Below, piece after piece: positions 1-29,443 of a DNA stretch of 64,000 nt. The notes below the pieces were generated by a model, which saw only the letters and a list, made by a program, of their open reading frames with translations, was not told the DNA's origin and did no database searches. The position numbers and the translations under genes are program-made. The first letter of the stretch is position 1, and the number at the start of each line of letters is the position of its first letter. Location: contig JAYRSE010000001.1 of NCBI GenBank assembly GCA_041920275.1, positions 2,004-66,003 on the forward strand, read 5' to 3'. Source of the DNA: Minisyncoccota bacterium (GTDB lineage: Bacteria > Patescibacteriota > Minisyncoccia > Phycocordibacterales > UBA12088).

Positions 1-393
1 CTTGGTTCAGGGGTGGTATTTCTTCTCGTTCGACGCTATGGCAGGACGCTGGTGCATCGGTATGTCGAACCCTCGACCCTCAAGCGGTTTGCCTACATGG
101 CACGAACCAAGGGCCCGGTCGCACTCTTTTTTGTCTACCTCGTACCCGGTCTTCCGGACGACGTGGTGAGCTTCATTGCCGGCCTGAGTAGCTTACCGAT
201 ACGCACACTTCTCGCCATTTCGTTCATAGGAAGACTGCCCGGATATTTCGCGCTCGCGTACGTTGGTGATAGTTTGGCACAGGGTAGAGAACCGACGGTT
301 ACGATCGGATTGTGTTGCGCGGTTACAGCCGTATTGGTGTTGGCCTATTACAACGCAGGACGCATTGAGCGCTACATACGGCGGTACGCATGA
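1..393 (+). CDS. DedA/SNARE-associated (TVP38/TMEM64) family membrane protein, 5'-partial (continues upstream of window)
   Basis: Open frame from nt 1. C-terminal motifs KGP..LFF.YL.PGLPDD and SF.AG match the DedA family. Confidence 0.7.
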   Translation, partial: LGSGVVFLLVRRYGRTLVHRYVEPSTLKRFAYMARTKGPVALFFVYLVPGLPDDVVSFIAGLSSLPIRTLLAISFIGRLPGYFALAYVGDSLAQGREPTVTIGLCCAVTAVLVLAYYNAGRIERYIRRYA

Positions 394-4742: not shown

Positions 4743-4840
4743 CCAACGCAGGATGGAACACATCGTGTAGTGATGAAAACCGCATCATACGGTACTCGTG
4801 TTTCGGCCGTACCGGTAAAGAGTAAGAAATAATACCCTAT

Positions 4841-4969
4841 GAAATCACCATGAACTCCGCCTGTACACCTTATGAGAAACCGCTCCAAGGGAGCTTGCCC
4901 GGTCTTAGTTTCTCAAAAGGTGTACAGACTCCGTGTCCCGGTGGTTAGTTGAAGATGGTATAAATAATG
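4841..4969 (+). repeat. Structured intergenic repeat, copy A (nested inverted repeats around conserved 27-nt loop)
   Basis: P1 CTGTACACC/GGTGTACAG, P2 GAGAAAC/GTTTCTC, loop CGCTCCAAGGGAGCTTGCCCGGTCTTAG. ~85% identical to the copy at 21619-21748. Confidence 0.7.
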
Positions 4970-13779: not shown

Positions 13780-14574
13780 ATGGAACACATCAAATCCAAT
13801 GTCGGCCTGTATGTCATCCTCGGGATCGTGCTGCTCCTCGGAGTCGTGTCGGGGATCGTCATAACAACACAGCACTCCGATGAAGGGTCCGAAACAAAAA
13901 AGGACGACCCGGTTCCGGGCGGGGAGGACGCGTCGCGGTCGATCGAGGTCGAGCTTGCTTGCACGAACGAGTATGCGATGCGTGCGACCTACTCAGAGCC
14001 GGATGCCCGAGGGGTGATGCAAAAGCTCACCTTGACCGTAACCCAAGGGGAAGTCGCGACCCTGCACGTGATGACGCCCGCCCGTTCCGGAAGCGGATCA
14101 CGGTTCGAGACCTCGGATGGCGTGTATGCGCTCTGGGAACACCAGGATGAGTTTCGGTACATGGTGAATGATGTTGATACTGCGGTGTGTCACAGGGTTG
14201 ATCTTTCGCAAGACACCGGTGCCGTGGGCGATGTCTCGGAAGACGGCCTTACCGGCAGGGTGTGGGTATTTGCGGATGCGGCGACACCCGAGGGCGGTGT
14301 GTTTCGACCCAAGGTGGCGGGTGCGTTCACGGTACGATTCGAAGCGGATGGAACGGTGGCCATGGGCACCGATTGTAACAATGCGAGCGGTGAATATACA
14401 CTGTCAGGAGATATGCTTGCCGTGAAGAACATCGCAAGCACCATGATGTACTGCGAAGGTTCTGAAGAAAGCAGTTTTCTGTCTCTCATCACATCGGTCG
14501 AGCGGTATACCCTTGAGGGTGATACACTCCGACTCATCCTCGCCGGAGGTTCGGGCGAGATGCGCTTTCGTTAA
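13780..14574 (+). CDS. Membrane-anchored MliC-like + META/HslJ-domain protein
   Basis: N-terminal TM anchor. Central Cys-containing MliC-like beta region. C-terminal META-like motif YTLSGDMLA...RYTLEGDTLRL. Confidence 0.6.
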   Translation: MEHIKSNVGLYVILGIVLLLGVVSGIVITTQHSDEGSETKKDDPVPGGEDASRSIEVELACTNEYAMRATYSEPDARGVMQKLTLTVTQGEVATLHVMTPARSGSGSRFETSDGVYALWEHQDEFRYMVNDVDTAVCHRVDLSQDTGAVGDVSEDGLTGRVWVFADAATPEGGVFRPKVAGAFTVRFEADGTVAMGTDCNNASGEYTLSGDMLAVKNIASTMMYCEGSEESSFLSLITSVERYTLEGDTLRLILAGGSGEMRFR

Positions 14575-16273: not shown

Positions 16274-16900
16274 ATGAACAAACAAGTACTCATGGGCACC
16301 GTGGCGGTCACACTTATTTTCGGGGGGTTTTTCACCTACGCATCGCTTCGGCTTGTGAACGCTCCCACAGAGACGGTCGTTCCTTCCGCCGAAGACCCCT
16401 CGCTTCGACCCGTGGATGCTCCCGTAAGCGAGGTCGTACAGCAGAACGGCTCCGCAGAGGATCGCTATCGGTTGGATGAAGAGGATGATGACAGGGACGA
16501 GGGGTCTTCCGAGTCGGAAAAAGATGATGATGACGACACCCCAAAGGAAGAAGAGGTGACACCTGCCGAAAAGAAGGTCGAACCCGCGACAAGCGGCACG
16601 GCCGGAAGCAGCACTGCGACACCTGTCCAACCGGCGGTCGCACCGCAAGTAACCGCTCCATCGGGGATCACCCTCGCCGAAGTCGCCACACACGGTTCCG
16701 AGGCGAGTTGCTGGATGGTGATCCGTGGCAAGGTGTACGACGTCACTTCCTACATCGGCAAACATCCGGCGGGGAAAAGCAGTATCCTCAAGGGGTGCGG
16801 AAAAGATGCGACGAGCATGTTCGAGGGGGTGAAGGGGCACCTGAAGCAAGCGACGCTCAATCTTTTACCCGGATACTATAAAGGAGAGCTTGCTTCTTAG
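16274..16900 (+). CDS. Membrane-anchored cytochrome b5-like heme-binding protein with acidic linker
   Basis: N-terminal TM helix, D/E-rich low-complexity linker, C-terminal cyt-b5 fold with HPAG/HPGG-type motif (GKHPAGKSSILKGCGKDATSMFE). Confidence 0.7.
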   Translation: MNKQVLMGTVAVTLIFGGFFTYASLRLVNAPTETVVPSAEDPSLRPVDAPVSEVVQQNGSAEDRYRLDEEDDDRDEGSSESEKDDDDDTPKEEEVTPAEKKVEPATSGTAGSSTATPVQPAVAPQVTAPSGITLAEVATHGSEASCWMVIRGKVYDVTSYIGKHPAGKSSILKGCGKDATSMFEGVKGHLKQATLNLLPGYYKGELAS

Positions 16901-16905
16901 AACGC

Positions 16906-18213
16906 ATGTCCCGCGATACGTTGCACAAGGTGTTTTGGAACGGGCTATTCGTCGCCAATCTGTACGCGATCGGGTATATATGGTTTCTGGGGAGTGCGGA
17001 CCTCCTCCGTGGCGACACCTCGGATGTCCTCGTGGCGCTCGGGCGATTTGCCGGTCTTCTGCTCCAGTACCTCATTCTGGTCGAGCTTGTGCTCGTGAGC
17101 CGTCTGCCGGCGCTGGAACGACTGTACGGCTTCGATAAACAGAATGTGGTGCATCGCAGGATCGGCTACTTTCTGATCGGTTTCCTCCTCGCACATCCGG
17201 TGCTTCTTTCCTTCGGGTACGGCCTCGGTATGGAACGAAGCGCTTCGGAGCAGTTCGCACGCTTCGTGTCCGACTGGGACGGTGTCATGGCGGCGACTGT
17301 CGGAGTCGTACTCATGGTTGTGGCGGGTACCCTTTCGATGCCGAAGGTGCGCAAGTTGGTGTCGTACGAGTTTTGGTATTTTTCCCATGTGCCACTGTAC
17401 CTTGCGGTGGCACTTGCGTTCGATCACCAGCTCTCTTCGGGTGATGTGGCGCAAGGAGGGCCGTTTGCTTACTGGCTTGTGATCAATTTCGCGGTGTTCG
17501 GTGCGGTCTTGATCTATCGATTTTTAGTACCCTTGTATCGGAATTGGAGGCATCGCTTTCGTGTTGCGCGGGTCGTGCGCGAGACGGACGCGGCGGTGTC
17601 CGTGTATCTCACCGGCATCCGGATGGGAGAGTTTCGGTTCGAAGCGGGGCAGTGGGTGCGTGTGCTCTTCATGCAACGGACGATGTGGCACGGGCACCCG
17701 TTCTCTCTTTCCGCGCCGTACGACGGAAAGGAGCTTCGACTCACGATCAAAGCGCTCGGCGATTGGACGAGTAGGGCGGGCGAGCTGTGTAAGGGGGTGC
17801 GGGTGTGGGTCGAAGGACCGCTCGGTACGTTCACGCTCTCTCACGCAAAGACTCGGAAGTACCTCTTCGTTGCGGGAGGGATCGGGATCACTCCCATCGT
17901 TGCCATGCTGCGCACGCTTTCTCCGGATGCGGACGCGATCTTTCTGTACGGTGTGCGTGCTCGCAAAGACCTCCTGTTCACCAAAGAGCTTTCGAAGTGC
18001 TCCGTTCGGGGTACGGTCTTCCTTTCCGACGAATCGGTCGAGGGGTTCGAGGTCGGCAGGATCACTGTGGAGCGCATCCATACGGCATGCCCGGATATCC
18101 TTACCCGCGATGTGTATCTTTGCGGGCCTCCGGCAATGGTCAGTGGATTAAAAAGGGAGCTTATCGAGGCCGGTCTTCCGTACGAACAGCTTCATTTCGA
18201 AGCGTTCGGCTAG
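16906..18213 (+). CDS. NOX-like ferric-reductase-domain flavoprotein (6-TM FRD + FAD/NAD(P)-binding dehydrogenase domain)
   Basis: TM ferric reductase domain with paired His residues. FAD motif HPFSLS. NAD(P) motif GGIGITP. C-terminal CGPPAM. Confidence 0.75.
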   Translation: MSRDTLHKVFWNGLFVANLYAIGYIWFLGSADLLRGDTSDVLVALGRFAGLLLQYLILVELVLVSRLPALERLYGFDKQNVVHRRIGYFLIGFLLAHPVLLSFGYGLGMERSASEQFARFVSDWDGVMAATVGVVLMVVAGTLSMPKVRKLVSYEFWYFSHVPLYLAVALAFDHQLSSGDVAQGGPFAYWLVINFAVFGAVLIYRFLVPLYRNWRHRFRVARVVRETDAAVSVYLTGIRMGEFRFEAGQWVRVLFMQRTMWHGHPFSLSAPYDGKELRLTIKALGDWTSRAGELCKGVRVWVEGPLGTFTLSHAKTRKYLFVAGGIGITPIVAMLRTLSPDADAIFLYGVRARKDLLFTKELSKCSVRGTVFLSDESVEGFEVGRITVERIHTACPDILTRDVYLCGPPAMVSGLKRELIEAGLPYEQLHFEAFG

Positions 18214-18313
18214 GGTCGCACAGTTCGGAACACCCGGTGTGGCGAATATGATGCGATGAGCAGTGTTCATGCTACCGTTGCGCACTTTGTGGTGACACGG
18301 TATCGTACCGTGC

Positions 18314-19336
18314 ATGGAATGGCAAAAGGTACAATCGGTATTGGCGCACGAGCCGAAGTTTCGGATCGAGCAGGTACGCAAGGCGGTCTTCGTCGATCTT
18401 GTGGAAGATTGGAGCCGAGTGACGGTGCTTCCCGCACCTTTGCGCGAGAAGCTCTCCGAGGAGTGCCCGCTTACGATACCTGCGGAGAAGTTGGTATCGG
18501 CCGATGGTAAGACCGTGAAGGCGCTTATCGCTCTTGCGGACGGTAAACGCATCGAGACCGTGCTCATGCGCCACGGTGACCGCAACACGGTGTGCGTGTC
18601 GACGCTTGTCGGGTGCCCCATGGGGTGCACCTTTTGTGCGACCGGCACCATGGGGATGGTGCGCAAGCTCGCCGCCGACGAGATCGTGTTGCAGGTACTC
18701 TATTTCGCGCGGTACCTTCATGCGGAACATGCTCGTGTGGGCAGTGTGGTCTTTATGGGGATGGGTGAGCCCTTTTTAAACTACGAGGCGGTGATGGAGT
18801 CGATACGCATACTGAACGATCCGAAGCTATTCTGCATCGGCGCGCGCCACATCTCCATTTCGACCTGCGGTATCTTGGATGGGATAGCGCGGCTCGCCGA
18901 AGAGGACCTGCAGGTGAATCTCGCGATATCGCTTCACGGAAGCAACGATGCCGTGCGTGCAAAACTTATGCCGATCGCACGCACGTACCCCATTGCGGAT
19001 CTGCTCAAAGCGGTCGACGCCTATACCGCAAAGACCAAACGCAAGGTGATGTTCGAGTACTTGCTTGTCGACGGAGTGAACGATGCGGACGAGCATGCAC
19101 GAGAGCTTGCGGTGCTCATGAACCGGCCACTCTCCATGGTGAACTTGATCTCATACAATCCGACGGGAAAGTACACCGCCTCGAGCGAAAAGCGGATCGA
19201 GCATTTTCGAGATATCTTGCGCAGTGCGGGAGTGGAAGCGACCATCCGTTTCCGATTCGGGCGTGACATCGAAGGGGCGTGCGGGCAGCTTGCGACCGAA
19301 AAGGTTGTGGACACAAAAAACAATCCGCCGGCGTGA
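18314..19336 (+). CDS. rlmN: 23S rRNA (A2503-C2)/tRNA methyltransferase RlmN, radical SAM
   Basis: CxxxCxxC cluster in VGCPMGCTFCATG. 340 aa with RlmN family architecture. Confidence 0.85.
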   Translation: MEWQKVQSVLAHEPKFRIEQVRKAVFVDLVEDWSRVTVLPAPLREKLSEECPLTIPAEKLVSADGKTVKALIALADGKRIETVLMRHGDRNTVCVSTLVGCPMGCTFCATGTMGMVRKLAADEIVLQVLYFARYLHAEHARVGSVVFMGMGEPFLNYEAVMESIRILNDPKLFCIGARHISISTCGILDGIARLAEEDLQVNLAISLHGSNDAVRAKLMPIARTYPIADLLKAVDAYTAKTKRKVMFEYLLVDGVNDADEHARELAVLMNRPLSMVNLISYNPTGKYTASSEKRIEHFRDILRSAGVEATIRFRFGRDIEGACGQLATEKVVDTKNNPPA

Positions 19337-21144: not shown

Positions 21145-21240
21145 CAGGATGCTCCGCCGGCATGCTTCACAAGAGACCTTCTAGGGCGCTTACCCGGTCT
21201 TAGTCTCTTGTGAAGCATCCCGGCTTTGCCCATAATCGTA
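21145..21240. repeat. Structured intergenic repeat, copy C (divergent stems, same conserved loop)
   Basis: Perfect 17-bp stem GATGCTTCACAAGAGAC/GTCTCTTGTGAAGCATC enclosing loop CTTCTAGGGCGCTTACCCGGTCTTAGT. Confidence 0.65.
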
Positions 21241-21381: not shown

Positions 21382-21579
21382 TCACCGCTTTGGTGCACCT
21401 GACACGCGCGCCCACCAGTTCGTCATGGGACAGTTACCGGTGATACCCGCACGAACAAGTCCGATGCCCATGAGGCCCGGGAGTACGAGCGGGTACCATT
21501 GTTCGGTGATCGCGTATGCCGCAAGAGAAGTAAGTATGATGATGCCGACGGTCAAGTGGGTCTTTTGCAATGGGTTCAT
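21382..21579 (-). CDS. DUF2892 (YgaP C-terminal-like) small inner-membrane protein
   Basis: 65 aa with two TM helices and the characteristic GLxRAGITGNCP motif. Confidence 0.6.
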   Translation of the reverse strand: MNPLQKTHLTVGIIILTSLAAYAITEQWYPLVLPGLMGIGLVRAGITGNCPMTNWWARVSGAPKR

Positions 21580-21618
21580 AATGTGAGTGGTGTGAAGGGT
21601 GTTAGTTATATCAACCTA

Positions 21619-21748
21619 AGAAACCATCAGGAACTCCGCCTGTACACCTGTTTGAGAAACCGCTCCAAGGGCGCTTGCCCGGTCTTAGTCTTTCAAAAAG
21701 GTGCACTGGCATCGTGTCCCATTGGTTAGTCGAATATGGTATTAATCG
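21619..21748. repeat. Structured intergenic repeat, copy B
   Basis: ~85% identity to copy A across ~125 nt, including loop CGCTCCAAGGGCGCTTGCCCGGTCTTAG. Stems are partly degraded relative to A. Confidence 0.7.
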
Positions 21749-22023
21749 ATCGAGAGCGCTTCGAGCGCTTGGGCGATATTGCGACTTCGTTCGGGCTCCG
21801 GCAGGTCTGCGCATGTGATGATCTGTGAAGAGATGTACAGCTCCCCGACCTTGCGGAGCGCGCCTCGTGCCGCGCGGATCTGGGAGACGACCTCCTTACA
21901 TCCGTACTGTTCGGGTGATTCGAGCATGCGGCGTATCGCCTGTATCTGGCCACTCGCACGGTTCAGGCGGTGTGCGATACGGTCCATCGATACGGTATTT
22001 TTGTGCGGTACTGGGGCATTCAT
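21742..22023 (-). CDS. CsoR/RcnR/CstR-family (DUF156) transcriptional repressor
   Basis: 93 aa with alpha-helical CsoR architecture. Cys42 and Cys71 are 29 residues apart, as in CsoR C36/C65. The His position is Gln67. Confidence 0.75.
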   Translation of the reverse strand: MNAPVPHKNTVSMDRIAHRLNRASGQIQAIRRMLESPEQYGCKEVVSQIRAARGALRKVGELYISSQIITCADLPEPERSRNIAQALEALSID

Positions 22024-22089
22024 AGGTACTGGTATGGGTATGTTAGATTAAATCTTGTAATTCTGTTTTAAATAATAAGTATTCATCTA

Positions 22090-22120
22090 TTGACAGCAGT
22101 ATACCCCATTGGGTATACTG
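22090..22120 (+). promoter_or_regulatory. Promoter TTGACA-18nt-TATACT overlapped by CsoR-type operator palindrome CAGTATACCCCATTGGGTATACTG
   Basis: -35 at 22090-22095, -10 at 22114-22119. The 24-nt inverted repeat at 22097-22120 matches the CsoR operator pattern ATACC-N-GGGTAT. ATG is 9 nt after the -10. Confidence 0.55.
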
Positions 22121-22128
22121 CCGCAACT

Positions 22129-23733
22129 ATGCTTGATACACGCATCTTGCGATCCTTCGCTCTGGTGAGTACACACCGAACGGTCGCACTCGTGAGTGCT
22201 GCGGCTCTGTTCGCAGTGGTTCTTTTTGTTGCACTTCCCGACAAGAGTCGCGTGGTGAGCGACGACCAGACGGTGCCCACCCATATCCTTGTCCGTGCGG
22301 AACGGATACCGCTTCCGTTCGAAGGCGTCTTGGTATCAAAGGAGGATGCCGTACTGGCGTCACAGGCGCAGGGTCGCTTGAGCGACTTACCGGCTCGCGA
22401 GGGATCGGTGGTGCATGCCGGCGACGTGCTTGCGGTCGTTGGTCAACCGGTGCTTGCGGCTCAGCGGTCGACGCTGGTCGCCAAGATACGGCTCATGGAA
22501 GAGCAACGTGGACTGGTGGAAGCTGAGCGCGACACCGCTTTGGTGCTCGCGGCGAAGGCGGCGCAAACGAATGCGACCGTTGGTACCGCACAGGTGGCAC
22601 TTACCGATGCGCAGGTGAGCACGGCGGCAAAGGCGCTGCGCGTGACCCTCACACAGCAGTACCTTTCCGCAACCGAGGCGCTGAAATTCCTTGCAGACAC
22701 CGCGGCCCTTTCAACAAGCGAAGTTTCCGAGCTTCGAGTGAAGGCGGCCCGTACGCTTGCCGGCTCCGAGCGTGCGAGCTACTTGGGTCAGCGGGTCATG
22801 ACAGGTGGAAGAGATCGCGGTCTGTATGATGATCTGCAGGCATTAAAAACGGATGAACCCCAGGTACTGCTCGATCTTTCTCAGCGCTTGCTCGACGGTC
22901 TTTCAACACTCGCCCGTGCGTACGAATCGGCCGAACGTAAGGCCTACGAGCGTACCAGTGCTTTGAGCGAAGGTGAGCGTGCACAGTACAACACCTACCG
23001 CAATGCGGTGCGGACCGCACAGGCGTCCGTGGAGGGCGCGCAGGGTATGCTCCGTACCGCGCTTGAGGCACACGAACTTGCGGTCGCAACTGCGGGTGGA
23101 ACACGAACGGTTCGTGATGCGGAACTCGAGCAAGCGAAAGTGGTGCAGGCCGGAGAGATGCGCGTGAGCGGAGCGACGCTTGCGAACCTGTATGCCGAGC
23201 TGCGCGCACTCGACGCTTCACTCGGGGAAGCGGTCGTGAAGGCGCCCTATACGGGTACGATCGTGGAGACATTCGTCGACCCCGGCACCTATGTGGCACC
23301 CGGAACACCGCTCGTGCGCATACAGAGCGCGACCGGTCTCGAGGTGCGTGCTACGATCCCGGGGCGTTATCTGTCTCGAATGACGATCGGTGCGTCCGCG
23401 ACCTTTCGCGATGGGGGAGCTGGAGTGCTTGATCGGATCTCACCGCACGTCGATGAACGTACGGGCGGGGTGACCGCATACATCGTGCTCAATGCGGTGG
23501 AGGCGCCGTATACCACCGGGTCGCACATCCGTGGCGAGCTTGAGCTTGTGGTCGATAAGGATGAGGACGGTGTGTATGGCATCCCGCACCGGTACCTCTC
23601 GTTCGATTGGAGCGGGCCCGTGGTGCGTACCGAAACGAATATGACACTGCCGGTCACGATCGTGCGTGACATGGGACAGGTAGTGTACGTGACCGGTCGG
23701 GACCTTGTAGACGGCCTTGCGCTTGTCCCGTAG
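22129..23733 (+). CDS. Efflux RND periplasmic adaptor (HlyD/membrane-fusion protein family)
   Basis: N-terminal TM anchor, long Ala-rich coiled-coil, C-terminal beta-barrel-like region. Immediately precedes the RND pump gene. Confidence 0.75.
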   Translation: MLDTRILRSFALVSTHRTVALVSAAALFAVVLFVALPDKSRVVSDDQTVPTHILVRAERIPLPFEGVLVSKEDAVLASQAQGRLSDLPAREGSVVHAGDVLAVVGQPVLAAQRSTLVAKIRLMEEQRGLVEAERDTALVLAAKAAQTNATVGTAQVALTDAQVSTAAKALRVTLTQQYLSATEALKFLADTAALSTSEVSELRVKAARTLAGSERASYLGQRVMTGGRDRGLYDDLQALKTDEPQVLLDLSQRLLDGLSTLARAYESAERKAYERTSALSEGERAQYNTYRNAVRTAQASVEGAQGMLRTALEAHELAVATAGGTRTVRDAELEQAKVVQAGEMRVSGATLANLYAELRALDASLGEAVVKAPYTGTIVETFVDPGTYVAPGTPLVRIQSATGLEVRATIPGRYLSRMTIGASATFRDGGAGVLDRISPHVDERTGGVTAYIVLNAVEAPYTTGSHIRGELELVVDKDEDGVYGIPHRYLSFDWSGPVVRTETNMTLPVTIVRDMGQVVYVTGRDLVDGLALVP

Positions 23734-26700
23734 GTGCGGCTCTTGCGAGAAAGGATGCGAAAAAGCTGTGGTATGAAGCATGAACAGTCACCATTCGGTC
23801 GGAATAATGAAGAAGGGGTACCGACGACCTTGGTGCATGACACGGTTTCCGATTCGAGCGAGGGTTTGAATTGGACGGGCAAGCTTGCGGAGACGTTCGT
23901 CATGAACCGTTCGCTCTCGTTGTTGATCGTGGGACTCGCACTTGCCTTTGGAGTGTTCGGCTTTTTGGCAACGCCGAAGCAGTATAATCCTCAGATCACG
24001 CGTCCCGCGTTCATCGTGGAAGTGTCGTATCCCGGTGCGACCGTAGATGAAGGGTACCGATTGGTTGCGACGGAACTCGTGGAAAAGGTTCAAGCTCTCG
24101 CGGGTGTGGATGAAGTGACCGTGCAGGTCCGTGACGGTGCTTCCATTGCGGCGGTAGTCATTTTTGACGTCGGCTTTTCGAAAGATACGGCAAAGGTCTC
24201 CCTGCAAACCCAACTCGCGCAGCATAGCTACCTGGCGCGTGGCGCCATTCGACAGCCGACGATCCGCGAGCTCGATCCGGACGAGGTTCCCATCCTGACG
24301 GTCCGGATCGTGGGTGCGGAGCATTCGCTCGCTTCACTGCGCGAGCACGCCGTTTCCGTGTCGCACGTACTTGCCGATGTGCCCGGCGTAGCCGAGGTCG
24401 AAGTGCACGGGGGGTATGCACCTGCTCTGGTGGTGGAATTGCTTCCGGAGGAAATGGCTCGCAGTGGTGCATCGCTTGGTGATGTGCAACGTGCACTAGC
24501 GGATGCGAGTACCGAACACTCGCTTCTTGCGTTAGGTGATGGTACGCGTCGCGTGGTCGTGGATATAGAGAATGCGGCTATGACACCCGAGGCCCTGGCG
24601 GAGGTGGGAGTACATCAAAGCGTACGTTTGGGTGATATCGCCCGCATATACGAGGGGACGAAAGAGGTATCATCGTATGTTCGTGCGCTGTATCCGGATG
24701 GTGTGCCGGAAGATGCGATCCTGCTTTCCGTCTCGAAGCGCGGAACGGCGAGTGCTCCGTCCGTGTCTCGGGACGTGCTTGAAGCACTGCGTGCCACACT
24801 CACGAACACCGCACACACGGGCGTCTCATTCGAGGTGATCAACGATGATGGTGCGATGGCAAGTGCGGAGATCGGCGGACTCATGATGAACCTCATCCAG
24901 TCCATCGTGATCGTCGGAGCGGTGCTCATGCTTTTCCTCTCACCGCGCAGTGCGGTGGTGGTGGGACTCTCCATACCGCTCACGATGCTCATCGTGTTCG
25001 GGCTCGGATACTTGGAAGGTCAGACCGTCAATCGCATCACACTCTTTGCGCTCATTTTGTCGCTGGGCCTTTTGGTCGACGCGGCGATCGTGGTCGTCGA
25101 GGCGATCCATACCGCGACCAAGCGGGTATGCTCGGAACAGGCGCGTGTGCGTGCGGTGGTGCGTGCCGTGAACGGCATCGGCGTCGGTCTGTTCCTTTCC
25201 ATGCTCACCAGCGTGGTCGTGTTCATGCCCATGCTGTTCATCACCGGCATGATGGGGCCGTACATGGGCCCCATCGCGTTCTTCGTACCGGCCGCACTTC
25301 TCGTTTCGTTCCTGATCGCGGTCACGGTCATGCCATACTTCGCGCTCTCTTTTATGCGGAGTGATGAAAGGACCACTGCCGCTTCCCGATTCTTCAACGG
25401 TCTCATTGAAACGATCACGCGGCGATACTCGGACCTGTTGTGTTCGATCATCGGCTCGCGAGTGATACAACGGCGCGTGTTGGTGTCCGCGGGTATCGCG
25501 TTTGCGCTCGCGCTTACGTTACCTGTGGCGCAGTTCGTGCATTTCCAAATGCTACCGAAAGCGGATCGTGACCAGTACTTCGTTTACGTTGATATGCCCG
25601 CCGGCACTGATGTTGTCGCGACGCGAGTTGCCGCCGAAGAGGTGGCACGGATCGCACTTGCGGACGAATACGCTCGGTCGGTGCAGCTGTTCGTCGCCGA
25701 TTCCCAGGTGCTGGATTTTAACGGCATGTTCAAGGGGGCGCATGTGCGCACCGCACCGCATCAAGCGACCCTTCGGGTCAACCTGGTACCGAAAGGCGAG
25801 CGGGATGATTCCTCGACCGATATCGTGGAACGTGCGCGTGCGGAGTACGCGGAACACGATGTCGCCTCGAAGGCGGAACGGGTCCGTTTCGTAGAGGACC
25901 CTCCCGGACCGCCGGTGTCCGCAACGTTCGTTGCAAAGGTATTCAGTGGTGAACATGCTGACCGCGTTGCCGTTTCGAACGGACTGTATGAGCTGCTCAG
26001 GGGCGTTTCCGGTATCGTGGACGTTGACGATGGAGCCGAGGAAGGGTACCTGCGGGCGGTACTCACGGTCGATCATGTGGCCGCGCGTTCGTTCGGTGTT
26101 TCGGTCGAAGACATCCACTCGGCACTCACGGTGCTCGGAGCTCCGGTCGAGGGAGCGCAGTACCATGACGCGCATCTTGCGGAATACGCCCCGATAGAGT
26201 TGCGTGTACCCCGTGAAGCGCGGAGTGCCCCGAGCGATCTTTCGTTCGTGACGGTCAGATCGCGGGAAGGTGTACCGGTTCCTCTGGAGTCGCGTGTTGA
26301 CATTCGGTATGAACGGAGTAGGGAGCCGGTGCATACCGAAGGGATGGTGCCGATCCGCTCCGTTACCGCGGAAACACAGGGCAGGTCGATTGTGTATGTC
26401 ATGCTCGAGGTGATGCGAAAGGCGCGAAGCGAAGGGATCGCGGGGTACCACGTCATCGCTTGGGACCTGTTCGGTATGGACCTTAAACGCGACGGGGCCC
26501 GTGTACGGATCGAGTGGGGTGGAGAGTGGGAGATGACTCTGGAGAATTTTCGCGATCTCGGTCTTGCGATGCTTGCCGCCATCTTCTTTGTATACGCGAT
26601 ACTGGTCGCGCAGTATCGCACGTTCCGCACACCCGGGCTTATCCTTACCACGGTGCCGCTCGGTTTGGTGGGAATACTCGCGGGCTTTTCGGTGCTCGAC

Positions 26701-27039
26701 GCGGTGGCGGGAGTACCGCTTACGGCGACCGCACTCATCGGCTTCATTGCACTCATTGGAATCGTCGTTAATAACGCGATCATCTTTCTTGAACGTTTCG
26801 ATGAGGTGCGGCAAGACGGTCTCGCCTATGATGCGGCTCTTGTGGAGGCGGCGCGTTCTCGTTTGCGGCCGATACTCCTTACATCGCTCACCACGGTGCT
26901 CGGCTCGCTCACGATCGCGTTCGATCCCGTGTGGAGCGGTCTTGCGTGGGCGATCGTCTTCGGCCTCTCGCTCTCTACGCTCCTTACGCTCGTGGTACTG
27001 CCGACGCTGTTGGTCTACACGGGACGGGGAGACAAATGA
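23734..27039 (+). CDS. RND efflux transporter permease (AcrB/CusA/CzcA superfamily); exact start uncertain (GTG 23734, or downstream ATG/TTG)
   Basis: ~1050-1100 aa, 12-TM RND architecture with two large periplasmic loops. Typical N-terminal segment ...LIVGLALAFGVFGFLATPKQYNPQITRP..VSYPGA. Confidence 0.85.
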   Translation: MRLLRERMRKSCGMKHEQSPFGRNNEEGVPTTLVHDTVSDSSEGLNWTGKLAETFVMNRSLSLLIVGLALAFGVFGFLATPKQYNPQITRPAFIVEVSYPGATVDEGYRLVATELVEKVQALAGVDEVTVQVRDGASIAAVVIFDVGFSKDTAKVSLQTQLAQHSYLARGAIRQPTIRELDPDEVPILTVRIVGAEHSLASLREHAVSVSHVLADVPGVAEVEVHGGYAPALVVELLPEEMARSGASLGDVQRALADASTEHSLLALGDGTRRVVVDIENAAMTPEALAEVGVHQSVRLGDIARIYEGTKEVSSYVRALYPDGVPEDAILLSVSKRGTASAPSVSRDVLEALRATLTNTAHTGVSFEVINDDGAMASAEIGGLMMNLIQSIVIVGAVLMLFLSPRSAVVVGLSIPLTMLIVFGLGYLEGQTVNRITLFALILSLGLLVDAAIVVVEAIHTATKRVCSEQARVRAVVRAVNGIGVGLFLSMLTSVVVFMPMLFITGMMGPYMGPIAFFVPAALLVSFLIAVTVMPYFALSFMRSDERTTAASRFFNGLIETITRRYSDLLCSIIGSRVIQRRVLVSAGIAFALALTLPVAQFVHFQMLPKADRDQYFVYVDMPAGTDVVATRVAAEEVARIALADEYARSVQLFVADSQVLDFNGMFKGAHVRTAPHQATLRVNLVPKGERDDSSTDIVERARAEYAEHDVASKAERVRFVEDPPGPPVSATFVAKVFSGEHADRVAVSNGLYELLRGVSGIVDVDDGAEEGYLRAVLTVDHVAARSFGVSVEDIHSALTVLGAPVEGAQYHDAHLAEYAPIELRVPREARSAPSDLSFVTVRSREGVPVPLESRVDIRYERSREPVHTEGMVPIRSVTAETQGRSIVYVMLEVMRKARSEGIAGYHVIAWDLFGMDLKRDGARVRIEWGGEWEMTLENFRDLGLAMLAAIFFVYAILVAQYRTFRTPGLILTTVPLGLVGILAGFSVLDAVAGVPLTATALIGFIALIGIVVNNAIIFLERFDEVRQDGLAYDAALVEAARSRLRPILLTSLTTVLGSLTIAFDPVWSGLAWAIVFGLSLSTLLTLVVLPTLLVYTGRGDK

Positions 27040-27143: not shown

Positions 27144-27452
27144 ATGCCCTACCTGCAGACCATTCTCGATGCCGAAGAACAAGCGCGCACCATACGCGAA
27201 AAGGCCGAGCGTGAAGCCGCGGCAATCGTGTCCGAGAAACGAACGGAGATTGCGGAGCGATTCGAAGCGCTCAAACTATCGCTCGATACCAAGCGGAGCG
27301 AGACGCTTGCCGAACGGAGAGTGCTCCTTGATCGTGCGTACGATACCGCGCTCGCTCATGCGAACGATGAAGCGAAGCGGCTGGTCGAACAGGTGCGACC
27401 GCGCGAGGTGCAAGCAGTCGCTCGAATTCGCGCTCGCGTGCTCGATCGGTGA
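27144..27452 (+). CDS. atpH: V/A-type ATPase peripheral-stalk subunit H/G
   Basis: 102-aa all-helical charged protein, first gene of the V-ATPase operon. Confidence 0.55.
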   Translation: MPYLQTILDAEEQARTIREKAEREAAAIVSEKRTEIAERFEALKLSLDTKRSETLAERRVLLDRAYDTALAHANDEAKRLVEQVRPREVQAVARIRARVLDR

Positions 27453-29443
27453 GAGTCGTTGCGCACCGATATCACCATATCACATACCATATGGCAGTTC
27501 TCCCGATGCAGAAGATCCGTTTGTACTTGCATCGAGGATCTGCAAGCGAGGTGTTGCGTGCGATCCAAAAACTCGGGGTGCTCCATCTCGAGGAGGTGAC
27601 GATCGGGGAAAGAGAGCTTGTTACCCGTGAGAAGGAGGCATTTGAATTCAATTACGCGAGCAGTCGTCTCGAGCTTGCCGTTCGGTTCCTCTCACGGTAC
27701 GAGGTTCCGAAGACCGGTCTACGCGCCGTGGTGGAAGGTACGAAAGTACGCATCACCGGAACGGCGCTCTACGAGGTGGTACAGACATTTGATTACAATA
27801 CGGTGGTGGATGCGGTGCAGGACATCGAACGCACGATCGTCGACGCCCGAACACGGATCGAAGAGCTTGAGGCGGAACGCGCACTGCTCGAACGCTGGCG
27901 CGGACTCGATCGAGTACTTGCCGCGGGACGAGAGACACCGTCCACCCGCACTCACTTTGTGGCCGGCACACTCGCGGGGGCGCACGATCTCTTGGTGTCG
28001 ATGTGTGCGGAACGATCGATCGTGTATCACACACTTATCGCCTCAGATACCGATCGATTGTATGCCATACATAGAAATGACGAAGCATCGTTCTTGCGAT
28101 GTGTTGCCGATTCCGGTTGCGAGACGGTCGAACTGCCACTCAGGCGCGGTACTCCCGCGGAAGAGCTTGAGCGTATCGATCGTGCACTCGGCTCGCAGCG
28201 TGAAGATATCGTTCATGCGGAGAGGCGAGCGGCAGAGATGGCGCGCGAATCTCTCGATAACCTCCGTGTCGTGAGCGATTACATGCTTTGGCAGAAAGAG
28301 AAGCATGATCTGCTTTCCACCGCCCGTGCAAGCGCCGAAACGATCGTGTTCGAAGGATGGTCTCCGACCGCGGACCTGCACGTCCTCGAGGAGCGTATCA
28401 AGAACAAGACCGAGCGGTACGCCCTTGAGTCGGTGGCACCGCATGAAGATGAGACGCCACCCGTGGAGTTGCGCAATCATCCCGCGATCGCACCGTTCGA
28501 GACCGTGACCCGTCTGTACGGACTTCCCGGACATACCGACCTTGACCCGACAGCATACCTTGCGGGGTTCTTCTTCCTCTTTTTCGGACTCGCACTCTCC
28601 GATCTGGGCTACGGACTCGTGATGGTGATGGGTCTCGGGTACATACTATACCGTTACCGTGTGCCAAAAACGGTTCGACCGATGCTTATTCTCATGTTTG
28701 CGGGAGGTGTTTCCACCACAGTTGTCGGTGCGTTGTACGGCGGGTACTTCGGTGTTTCGATGGACGTGATGCCGGAGTGGGTGAGGTCTTTGCAGATTTT
28801 TGATCCGATCAAAGATCCGATGCCGGTATTTTATCTCGCGCTTGCGCTCGGTGTGTTGCAGATCACGGTGGGTTTGTTCCTGTCAATGGTCTCTGAGGCA
28901 AGGAACGGGCGTCTGCTCACCGGTATTGCGGAAAAGGGTCCATGGGTCGGATTTTTTCTCTTCGGCAGTGCATTGCTTGGCGCACGCCTTGCATACATTC
29001 CGGGATCGGTCGATATGTACCGGTATGGTGTATACGCGTGCATTGCGAGCATTGTTGCGGTTGCGGCATACAAAGAAAAAAACTGGTTCCTGAAACCGAT
29101 CAAAGGCGTGTTGAGTTTGTACGACCTGGTTGCGTATTTTTCCGACATACTTTCATATTCACGCCTCCTTGCGTTGGGACTTGCTACGAGCGCACTCGCG
29201 TACGCAGTGAATCTCATAGCGGCAATGGTGCAAGACGCGCCGTACTATTCGGGGTATATCTTCATGACGGCAATACTGTTGGTAGGGCACCTGTTCAATC
29301 TTGCGCTTAACGTGCTTGGTGCATTCATTCATTCCGCTCGCTTGCAATTCGTTGAGTTCTTCGGCAAATTTGTGAACGGTACCGGGAGGCCGTATGCACC
29401 GTTCAGGCGGCGAGAACGGTATGTGGAGCTGGTCGATTCGTGA
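27449..29443 (+). CDS. atpI: V/A-type ATPase subunit I (a subunit)
   Basis: 664 aa with soluble N-terminal half and 7-8 TM C-terminal half. Confidence 0.85.
   Translation: MRVVAHRYHHITYHMAVLPMQKIRLYLHRGSASEVLRAIQKLGVLHLEEVTIGERELVTREKEAFEFNYASSRLELAVRFLSRYEVPKTGLRAVVEGTKVRITGTALYEVVQTFDYNTVVDAVQDIERTIVDARTRIEELEAERALLERWRGLDRVLAAGRETPSTRTHFVAGTLAGAHDLLVSMCAERSIVYHTLIASDTDRLYAIHRNDEASFLRCVADSGCETVELPLRRGTPAEELERIDRALGSQREDIVHAERRAAEMARESLDNLRVVSDYMLWQKEKHDLLSTARASAETIVFEGWSPTADLHVLEERIKNKTERYALESVAPHEDETPPVELRNHPAIAPFETVTRLYGLPGHTDLDPTAYLAGFFFLFFGLALSDLGYGLVMVMGLGYILYRYRVPKTVRPMLILMFAGGVSTTVVGALYGGYFGVSMDVMPEWVRSLQIFDPIKDPMPVFYLALALGVLQITVGLFLSMVSEARNGRLLTGIAEKGPWVGFFLFGSALLGARLAYIPGSVDMYRYGVYACIASIVAVAAYKEKNWFLKPIKGVLSLYDLVAYFSDILSYSRLLALGLATSALAYAVNLIAAMVQDAPYYSGYIFMTAILLVGHLFNLALNVLGAFIHSARLQFVEFFGKFVNGTGRPYAPFRRRERYVELVDS

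Follow-up and report, generated by a model that had tools for sequence, protein, structure and literature searches.

It is not yet understood how CsoR-family repressors that carry the same cysteine pair distinguish Cu(I) from reactive sulfur species (PMC8643695). In genuine Cu sensors, the histidine at position Y of the W-X-Y-Z fingerprint acts with a near-invariant Tyr35 and Glu81; CstR binds Cu(I) yet stays on the DNA owing to its missing Y-histidine, and the x-C-x-C fingerprint marks three candidate persulfide-sensor clusters (3, 4 and 10) of a sequence similarity network (PMC8643695). Here we describe a locus in a 64,000-nucleotide stretch of a Minisyncoccota bacterium genome (contig JAYRSE010000001.1, positions 2,004 to 66,003; hereafter 'the window'), in which a CsoR-family repressor with Cys-Gln-Cys in its sensor site is divergent from the genes of an efflux pump, a membrane-fusion protein (MFP) of the HlyD family and a resistance-nodulation-division (RND) permease, and is followed by a gene for a small DUF2892 membrane protein. 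Very probably, judging from sequence comparison, this repressor binds a palindromic operator, OP1, and controls the pump promoter in which the operator lies; whether the whole is an efflux module with a CstR-like dithiol switch instead of Cu(I) allostery we regard as evenly balanced.

Among described systems, CstR (Staphylococcus aureus, Enterococcus faecalis and Streptococcus pneumoniae/S. mitis; PDB 7MQ1) shares with the window repressor its fold, its size, the x-C-x-C fingerprint and the 29-residue cysteine spacing, and both have an amide at Y, Gln in the window repressor and Asn55 in S. pneumoniae CstR (SpCstR). The operators are almost identical, AGTATACCC-CATT-GGGTATACT in the window and ATATACCC-TTAT-GGGGTATAT for S. 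mitis cst (whole: ATATACCCTTATGGGGTATAT; PMC8643695), and, as in CstR systems, most relatives of the window locus have two operator sites in the intergenic region. However, the repressor is only 23–25% identical to CstR, which is not its closest relative, and it is nested instead beside a Cys-His-Cys family. The cargo also differs: rhodaneses, CstB, sulfide:quinone oxidoreductase (SQR), coenzyme A (CoA)-persulfide reductase (CoAPR) and TauE for CstR, an MFP-RND pump and a DUF2892 membrane protein here. With the Cu(I)-CsoR proteins of Mycobacterium tuberculosis (MtCsoR), Bacillus subtilis and S. aureus, the locus has in common the family, the fold, the two cysteines, a type-2 operator with a GC core and AT flanks, and divergent or adjacent efflux cargo, but its Y residue is Gln or Arg, the Glu81 equivalent is unconserved, the tyrosine is at C-2, the pump is of the RND type and copA/copZ are missing.

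Two further systems resemble parts of the locus. Adjoining Escherichia coli ygaP is ygaV, which encodes a sulfide-responsive regulator (PMC9774250), so that there too a small thiol-based repressor stands beside a YgaP-type two-helix membrane domain with a conserved cysteine; it differs in that the regulator is of the ArsR/SqrR type, YgaP contains a catalytic rhodanese and there is no RND pump. The tripartite RND systems of the CusCFBA/AcrAB type likewise place an MFP and an RND permease in tandem, and the Asp/Glu of transmembrane helix 4 (TM4) and the Arg of TM11 that belong to the proton relay are kept in the window. By contrast with them (21–23% identity), the window has no outer-membrane factor gene, CusA Met triad, AcrB Asp408 or Lys940, its host belongs to the candidate phyla radiation (CPR), and its predicted regulator belongs to the CsoR family, not to the two-component systems or the TetR proteins.

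The features of the locus, in window coordinates, are:
21382 to 21579, minus strand: 65-residue two-helix membrane protein, YgaP-like_TM/DUF2892, with an invariant G-x-T-G-x-C-P motif (Cys50)
21742 to 22023, minus strand: CsoR-family repressor, 93 residues, with X = Cys42, Y = Gln67 and Z = Cys71 and without a conserved W residue
22024 to 22043, minus strand: OP2/P2 remnant, an eroded second operator-promoter unit (ACATACCCATACCAGTACCT) just upstream of the repressor ATG
22090 to 22119, plus strand: predicted pump promoter, with -35 TTGACA (22090–22095), an 18-nucleotide spacer and -10 TATACT (22114–22119), 11 of 12 consensus positions
22096 to 22121, no strand assigned: operator OP1, a perfect 11+4+11 palindrome, GCAGTATACCC-CATT-GGGTATACTGC, with its core TATACCC-N4-GGGTATA at 22100–22117
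22098 to 22126, minus strand: possible mirrored promoter towards the repressor, TTGCGG (22126–22121), 17 nucleotides, TATACT (22103–22098)
22129 to 23733, plus strand: HlyD-family membrane-fusion (periplasmic adaptor) protein, 534 residues (PF13437 HlyD_3, E = 1e-15; TIGR01730 RND_mfp, E = 2e-23)
23734 to 27039, plus strand: RND permease, about 1090 residues (PF00873 ACR_tran, E = 2e-129, residues 52–1094)

The repressor translation (MNAPVPHKNTVSMDRIAHRLNRASGQIQAIRRMLESPEQYGCKEVVSQIRAARGALRKVGELYISSQIITCADLPEPERSRNIAQALEALSID) matches PF02583 (Trns_repr_metal) with 60.8 bits against a cut-off of 22.8 (E = 1.8e-16), which places it in the CsoR/RcnR superfamily; a second PF02583 paralogue was sought in the window and none was found. 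An AlphaFold model built with 54 homologues (predicted local distance difference test score 87.5) has helices at residues 10–35, 42–71 and 78–91. The structures closest to the model are those of InrS, S. pneumoniae CstR, FrmR and three CsoRs, and the top 13 Foldseek matches are all InrS, CstR, FrmR or CsoR (template-modelling score 0.47–0.78). By sequence, InrS (E = 7e-7) is a better match than SpCstR (E = 2e-5).

The fingerprint was read from four independent pairwise alignments (InrS, TtCsoR, SpCstR 7MQ1 and FrmR), with which a multiple alignment that adds E. coli RcnR and FrmR (from the genome record), SpCstR and MtCsoR agrees. For MtCsoR we used what we take to be its sequence, which reproduces the published numbering Y35/C36/H61/C65/E81. 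Position X, Cys42, aligns with MtCsoR C36, RcnR/FrmR C35 and SpCstR C30, and position Z, Cys71, with MtCsoR C65 and SpCstR C59, at a spacing of 29 that equals that of MtCsoR C36/C65. At Y, the repressor has Gln67 where MtCsoR, RcnR, FrmR, InrS and TtCsoR have His and SpCstR has its Asn55 'wedge', giving a fingerprint of the x-C-x-C type (C42-Q67-C71). The second shell of the Cu sensors is not found either: position 85, aligned with MtCsoR E81, is Gln, and the tyrosine stands at C-2, not at C-1 as MtCsoR Tyr35 does. An earlier note on this DNA, made from the letters alone, had described a CsoR-family repressor with Cys42, Gln67 and Cys71 at the CsoR C36/C65 spacing, its metal-ligand histidine replaced by Gln67, and the family match and the alignments with CsoR, RcnR, FrmR and CstR, none of which puts a His at the repressor's own Y position, bear this out. 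Ni/Co sensing of the RcnR/InrS type (H-C-H-H or H-C-H-C) was rejected on the variable N-terminal tail without a conserved His and on Gln at Y, and formaldehyde sensing of the FrmR type (P-C-H-x with Pro2 and His60) on an N-terminus, MNAPVPH, that varies in the clade, and again on Gln at Y.

Both cysteines are invariant in all 13 sequences of the repressor's own clade, in which Y is Gln in 11 and Arg in 2 (in the nine-sequence alignment A1, C42 and C71 are invariant and Y is Gln in 8 of 9). The flanking motifs Y-x-C-K and C-x-x-LPEPER are strictly kept down to about 55–60% identity, from which, together with the cysteines, we infer continued selection on the sensor site. Besides Gln/Arg67, the clade has Ser24, Gly/Ser/Thr41 and Val45, and position 85 varies (Q, H, R, T, K or E). 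It is a rare clade, with one GTDB species representative (an uncultured Candidatus Saccharibacteria metagenome-assembled genome) and one member labelled Candidatus Pacebacteria; in a set of 1.8 billion proteins, no more than four clusters (at 50% identity) come within E<1e-10 of the repressor, and clade-profile scans found just one close locus in GTDB species genomes (L006) and one in JGI metagenomes (L007). Operator statistics therefore rest on about ten loci. The module DNA was compared with nine further independent clade loci and three sister-family loci; one relative, P0007, was not placed on any contig, and one contig of P0003 contributed no DNA.

Across these relatives the module is kept amid differing flanking genes, and a Cys-Arg-Cys member (P0010, 63% identical) retains every part of it, both operators included. 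Of three near-identical P0010 contigs, one (L020, 3658–4116) lacks a called DUF2892 gene downstream of the repressor and has a called open reading frame on the opposite strand in its place, which may reflect a frameshift or an assembly variant. In L007 (163–1400) the pump has been lost and an orfA resembling that of an insertion sequence (a helix-turn-helix transposase fragment) lies upstream, while the repressor, an OP2-type operator and the DUF2892 gene stand together; judging by this locus, the repressor–DUF2892 pair may be the minimal unit.

The intergenic region between the repressor and HlyD genes is 105 nucleotides long, with 34% G+C against 56% for the window, and OP1 fills the spacer and -10 of the predicted pump promoter within it. 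The 24-nucleotide palindrome CAGTATACCCCATTGGGTATACTG at 22097–22120, which the earlier note had seen overlapping the divergent promoter TTGACA-18-TATACT and had matched to a CsoR-type operator, extends to perfect 11-nucleotide arms at 22096–22121, and the match is supported by its near-identity with the S. mitis cst operator. The OP1 core is the sole perfect TATACCC-N4-GGGTATA in the 64 kb; shuffled sequences gave an expectation of 0.59 sites at up to three mismatches, and for a perfect match of 14 bases the expectation is about 2e-4. It is equally placed in L002, L004, L006, L012, L013, L014, L015 and L018 and in the sister loci L021, L023 and L025, and in each locus the motif is confined to the repressor–pump intergenic region. 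As is characteristic of the superfamily, a palindromic operator with a G/C core and AT flanks thus covers the spacer and -10, kept at sequence level in more than ten loci. The outer palindrome bases (22097–22099 and 22118–22120 in the window) vary symmetrically, CAG/CTG in the window, TAG/CTA in L002 and GAG/CTC in L004, at positions that fall outside both -10 hexamers, and these paired changes argue for selection on dyad symmetry. Two operator-like sites elsewhere in the window, at 14506 (three mismatches) and 16961 (two mismatches), were rejected as regulon members because they are at chance level and because the relatives show the motif only between repressor and pump.

The HlyD ATG, at 22129, lies 9 nucleotides past the -10 TATACT, which leaves no room for a Shine-Dalgarno site. 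Ten loci have the layout TTGACA-18-TATA(C/T)(T/A)-7..10 nucleotides-ATG with a TATACCC-N4-GGGTATA-type dyad in the spacer and -10, sister locus L021 having a TTGTCA-19 variant, and the distance from the -10 to the ATG is kept across loci although the HlyD N-terminal sequences diverge. From the kept distance and the missing Shine-Dalgarno room we infer a leaderless mRNA, as the earlier note had proposed for the window. A leaderless, or nearly leaderless, pump mRNA from an operator-controlled promoter is well supported as a predicted conserved feature of the module.

The other arm of OP1 supplies the -10 of the possible mirrored promoter, from which the repressor transcript would have a leader of about 68 nucleotides. 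This promoter is under the threshold of the promoter scan (3 of 6 in the -35), and its equivalents read GTGACA-18-TATACT in L004 and L006 and TTGCGA-17-TATACT in L002. An intact second unit, OP2/P2, is present in L004, L006, L012, L013, L014, L015 and L018 (TTGnnn-17/18-TATAnn-6..8-ATG, with TATACC-N4-6-GGTATA in the spacer), whereas in the window and in L002, which is about 90% identical to it, the right half-site and the -10 are gone; in these two the repressor is more likely read from the predicted mirrored promoter. Searches of the regulatory region and of the hairpin repeat described below against Rfam gave no family match, apart from a chance sub-threshold hit.

Outside the clade, the nearest relatives of the repressor are 41–45% identical and have the motif C-x-x-L-P-x-x-E-R in common. 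They form a sister family of at least 709 proteins (E<1e-8) whose source names include Candidatus Kaiserbacteria, Nomurabacteria and Parcubacteria; examples from each (P0215, P0213 and P0195, respectively) are 38–40% identical to the window repressor, and the closest member, P0011, up to 45%. Cys-His-Cys is found in 117 of 120 members and Glu85 in 107 of 120, and the sister residues Glu24, Asp41, Phe45 and Glu85 stand against Ser24, Gly/Ser/Thr41, Val45 and a variable position 85 in the window clade. At the sister loci (L021, L023/L024 and L025/L026), the repressor is divergent from HlyD (520–536 residues) and RND (about 1065 residues) genes, which are followed by a YgaP-like_TM gene. Their RNDs are 45–49% identical to that of the window, against 21–23% for AcrB and CusA, and in operator and promoter design they match the window clade (TTGACA-18-TATAnn-7..10-ATG, predicted leaderless).

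On this comparison, the window repressor represents a derived offshoot of a large family that is found across the CPR and predicted to control an orthologous HlyD-RND-DUF2892 module. The branch has replaced His67 (by Gln/Arg), Glu24 (Ser), Asp41 (Gly/Ser/Thr) and Phe45 (Val) and has relaxed Glu85, and it has retained both cysteines, the operator and the cargo. The earlier note had placed the repressor in the CstR branch rather than with Cu(I)-CsoR; this stands for the fingerprint, x-C-x-C without His, but is not supported for its kinship, since the nearest outside relatives are Cys-His-Cys proteins.

Some neighbours of the related loci were also recorded. In a Candidatus Nomurabacteria genome (L025 5340–7751 and L026 4925–7336), a P-type cation ATPase, which contains the domains Cation_ATPase_N and Cation_ATPase_C and is not of the heavy-metal P1B type, lies 75 nucleotides downstream of the sister repressor on the same strand, which suggests a wider cation-related regulon. 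A gene for a DUF2202 (ferritin-like) protein recurs at a few kb from the module, in the window clade as well as the sister family (L004 8519–9253; L023 5446–6069; L024 5287–6069). A more distant relative of the repressor, 39% identical, ends a cst-like operon (L008 1635–4481) made up of a YgaP-like rhodanese with a DUF2892 tail, TauE/SafE, a rhodanese and a persulfide-dioxygenase-like metallo-beta-lactamase. This regulator keeps His at Y (KCHLETC), and with such a histidine in a sulfur operon the W-X-Y-Z fingerprint alone does not predict the inducer.

The RND reading frame opens at GTG 23734, right past the HlyD stop, with alternative starts at ATG 23755 and ATG 23773; the L002 protein is called from the equivalent of ATG 23773. 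The HlyD protein had no sequence match in PDB. For the RND, generic multidrug models rank highest in NCBIfam (best, multidrug RND_permease_2), with the CusA/CzcA model lower, and in PDB it is 6vej, MdtB and other multidrug pumps that match best, ZneA following closely. The CusA Met573/Met623/Met672 triad is absent from four clade RNDs, which have Tyr, a gap and Pro at the aligned places, and none of the CusA Met pairs is found in these four, in an alignment at 23% identity in which single positions are approximate. TM4 reads VDAAIVVVEA, with a single Asp as in CusA, against Asp407-Asp408 in AcrB, and TM10 has Asn where AcrB has K940 and CusA E939; Arg971 and Thr978 (AcrB numbering) are kept, and the proton relay is not that of the HAE-1 AcrB type. 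A search of the RND and HlyD proteins for conserved Met/His/Cys clusters, as possible marks of a metal path, found only scattered residues (for example H603 and M606, in both clades), none of them diagnostic. For the pump, the earlier note had raised the choice between the heavy-metal efflux (HME) signature of CusA and the hydrophobe/amphiphile efflux (HAE) signature; on inspection it has neither. As far as its sequence can place it, the RND is deep-branching and fits neither the CusA nor the AcrB signature, and its substrate is not readable from sequence.

The DUF2892 protein of the window matches PF11127 with E = 5e-5 and 23.7 bits, just under the cut-off of 25.3; all seven of seven orthologues match (best 5e-7), and hhalign aligns the orthologue profile to residues 117–169 of E. 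coli YgaP with a probability of 83%, with the cysteines aligned. The module protein has no rhodanese domain. Its gene lies behind the repressor in the window clade and behind the RND gene in the sister loci. The gap between repressor and DUF2892 gene is about 19–35 nucleotides in L002, L004, L006, L015 and L018 and about 120 in L007; it has grown to 162 in the window because a mobile hairpin element, described below, inserted between the two. The earlier note was thus right that a YgaP-type domain lies downstream, though not immediately so. Its use of the domain as a pointer to a sulfane-sulfur response fell away: the DUF2892 gene is already present in the Cys-His-Cys sister operons and so predates the loss of the histidine, which means that it does not speak for a sulfur function, and enzymes of sulfur detoxification are absent from the locus. 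Elsewhere, a DUF2892 gene of Azospira is induced about 10-fold under H2S (PMC5358917).

We propose that the 93-residue repressor, presumably as a tetramer, would bind the dyad TATACCC-N4-GGGTATA in the spacer and -10 of the pump promoter; since the other OP1 arm is also the -10 from which a mirrored promoter would probably drive the repressor transcript, which ancestrally would have included the DUF2892 gene, one bound repressor could shut off both directions. Derepression would come about by covalent chemistry on the inter-subunit Cys42/Cys71' dithiol, as in CstR, through a disulfide or polysulfide cross-link or alkylation. The inducer would then belong to the thiol-reactive small molecules, with persulfide/polysulfide as the leading single candidate, and the general, non-CusA pump and the Cys-bearing DUF2892 protein would clear or handle the inducing compound. 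A dithiol switch is proposed because the cysteine pair is strictly kept while the Cu(I)-ligating histidine is lost and the second-shell Glu relaxed. Taken by itself, the part of this proposal in which the repressor is not Cu(I)-allosteric seems to us slightly favoured by the sequences, and the choice of persulfide in particular as the inducer remains tentative and rather doubtful.

Several observations weigh against such a switch. The cargo is identical in the Cys-His-Cys sisters, so that it is most economical to assume that the inducer, a metal, has not changed either. Neither in the module nor beside it are there genes for sulfur oxidation or sulfur transfer, whether for a rhodanese, a persulfide dioxygenase, SQR, a CoA-persulfide reductase or TauE. 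Gln ligates copper in some proteins, such as stellacyanin; the Arg at Y in two clade members argues, for its part, against a ligand role for the Y residue. This residue is in any case an imperfect predictor of the inducer, to go by L008, and the link of DUF2892 to sulfide is circumstantial, the domain being shared with the sister operons. Because OP2 is decayed in the window, autoregulation is also less certain there than in the relatives.

Much the same evidence could be taken to mean that the repressor still senses Cu(I) or another thiophilic metal through its two cysteines, perhaps with Gln67 or another residue, and that the pump exports this metal, as its counterparts in the Cys-His-Cys sister family presumably do. 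The orthologous sister module is x-C-H-C with a second-shell Glu, it has the identical operator and promoter design and pumps 45–49% identical to those of the window, one sister locus has the P-type cation ATPase directly behind its repressor, and TM4, with its VDAAIV, resembles CusA in containing only one Asp; if the inducer is still copper, the locus would be a metal-efflux regulon of the ordinary kind, apart from its unusual ligands. We nevertheless consider a metal sensor unlikely. The Y-histidine is lost (Gln in 11 and Arg in 2 of 13) and the MtCsoR E81 equivalent is no longer conserved, the RND has neither the CusA Met triad nor its Met pairs, no copA/copZ is present in the module or among the flanking genes of the window, L002, L004 and L018, and CstR, which binds Cu(I), is not released from DNA without this histidine (PMC8643695).

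Improbable, in our view, is a true persulfide-sensing CstR heading a sulfide or sulfane-sulfur detoxification system, which is how the earlier note would read if taken literally. Its x-C-x-C fingerprint, the Gln aligned to SpCstR N55, the cst-like operator and the DUF2892/YgaP link would all be accounted for, but not the 23–25% identity to SpCstR, the better match to InrS, the Cys-His-Cys CPR proteins as nearest relatives, the missing neighbourhood of sulfurtransferase, persulfide dioxygenase, SQR, CoAPR and TauE genes, or a DUF2892 protein without a rhodanese domain. We give as little weight to decay of the sensor site, by which an effector-blind repressor or simple autoregulator would hold the pump at a low constitutive level, or the pump would be controlled otherwise: the losses of His and Glu, the eroded OP2 and the mobile element that splits the repressor–DUF2892 operon in the window fit decay, whereas the invariant cysteines, the flanking motifs strictly conserved to about 55–60% identity and the perfect OP1 do not. 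If the dithiol switch that we propose is right, the window sub-branch might represent a natural effector switch, from a Cu(I)-type site (Cys-His-Cys plus Glu) to a CstR-like dithiol, within a lineage-wide CPR module in which DUF2892 is a possible pump accessory or substrate hand-off partner. We offer this as a speculative possibility; it would mean that the same pump, once called on by metal stress, now answers to persulfide or electrophile stress, with operator, promoter and cargo unchanged.

Systems that combine a CsoR-family repressor, a type-2 operator and a divergent efflux promoter are of a kind already known. What is not described in the searchable literature is that this repressor family is paired with an MFP-RND-DUF2892 module across the CPR, the predicted leaderless design common to the promoters of the module, and a sub-branch that loses His and Glu with operator and cargo unchanged; a search of the literature for CsoR in CPR or Saccharibacteria found nothing relevant. 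The large Cys-His-Cys family and its small Cys-Gln/Arg-Cys offshoot, with a shared operator, shared promoter design and orthologous pump, form a matched natural pair, and therefore swapping a few residues (H67, E85, E24, D41 and F45) could test effector specificity directly. The comparison also documents a conserved, regulated efflux module with consistent leaderless promoters in CPR, where gene regulation is almost unstudied, and ties the uncharacterised DUF2892 domain to RND pumps.

One further feature lies between the repressor and DUF2892 genes, outside the ancestral module:
21609 to 21741, no strand assigned: mobile hairpin repeat insertion

This element is one of a dispersed family of hairpin repeats of about 80–110 nucleotides, with copies at 21611–21720, 4832–4940 and 21155–21235 of the window, two of which flank the DUF2892 gene. 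The apical loop is conserved, CUAAGACCGGG(C/U)AAGC(G/U)CCCU, and its exact motif occurs three times where 0 occurrences are expected; in the third copy the stem has another sequence yet still pairs, and the RNA folds have z-scores of -3.6 to -8.9. The window insertions are missing from the L002 locus, which carries a copy elsewhere (L002 7976–8115), and the element is therefore taken to be mobile. It resembles a miniature inverted-repeat transposable element (MITE) or repetitive extragenic palindrome (REP), or else a terminator-like cassette; no Rfam family matches it.

Among the surroundings of the module in the window, a neighbouring pair of extracytoplasmic-function (ECF) sigma and anti-sigma factors was rejected as a module part, as it is not next to the module in L004 or L018. 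Right behind the RND gene begins a V/A-type ATPase operon (27144–29443 onward), in which a gene for a 102-residue coiled-coil subunit precedes one for a V_ATPase_I homologue; L002 shares this synteny, L004 and L018 do not, and the operon was likewise set aside. A few kb from the module, at 16274–19336 on the plus strand, synteny with L002 identifies in a row a cytochrome-b5-domain protein, a NOX-like ferric-reductase/FAD/NAD-binding membrane protein and a radical S-adenosylmethionine (SAM) enzyme, a redox gene set that is unexpected for a reduced CPR genome.

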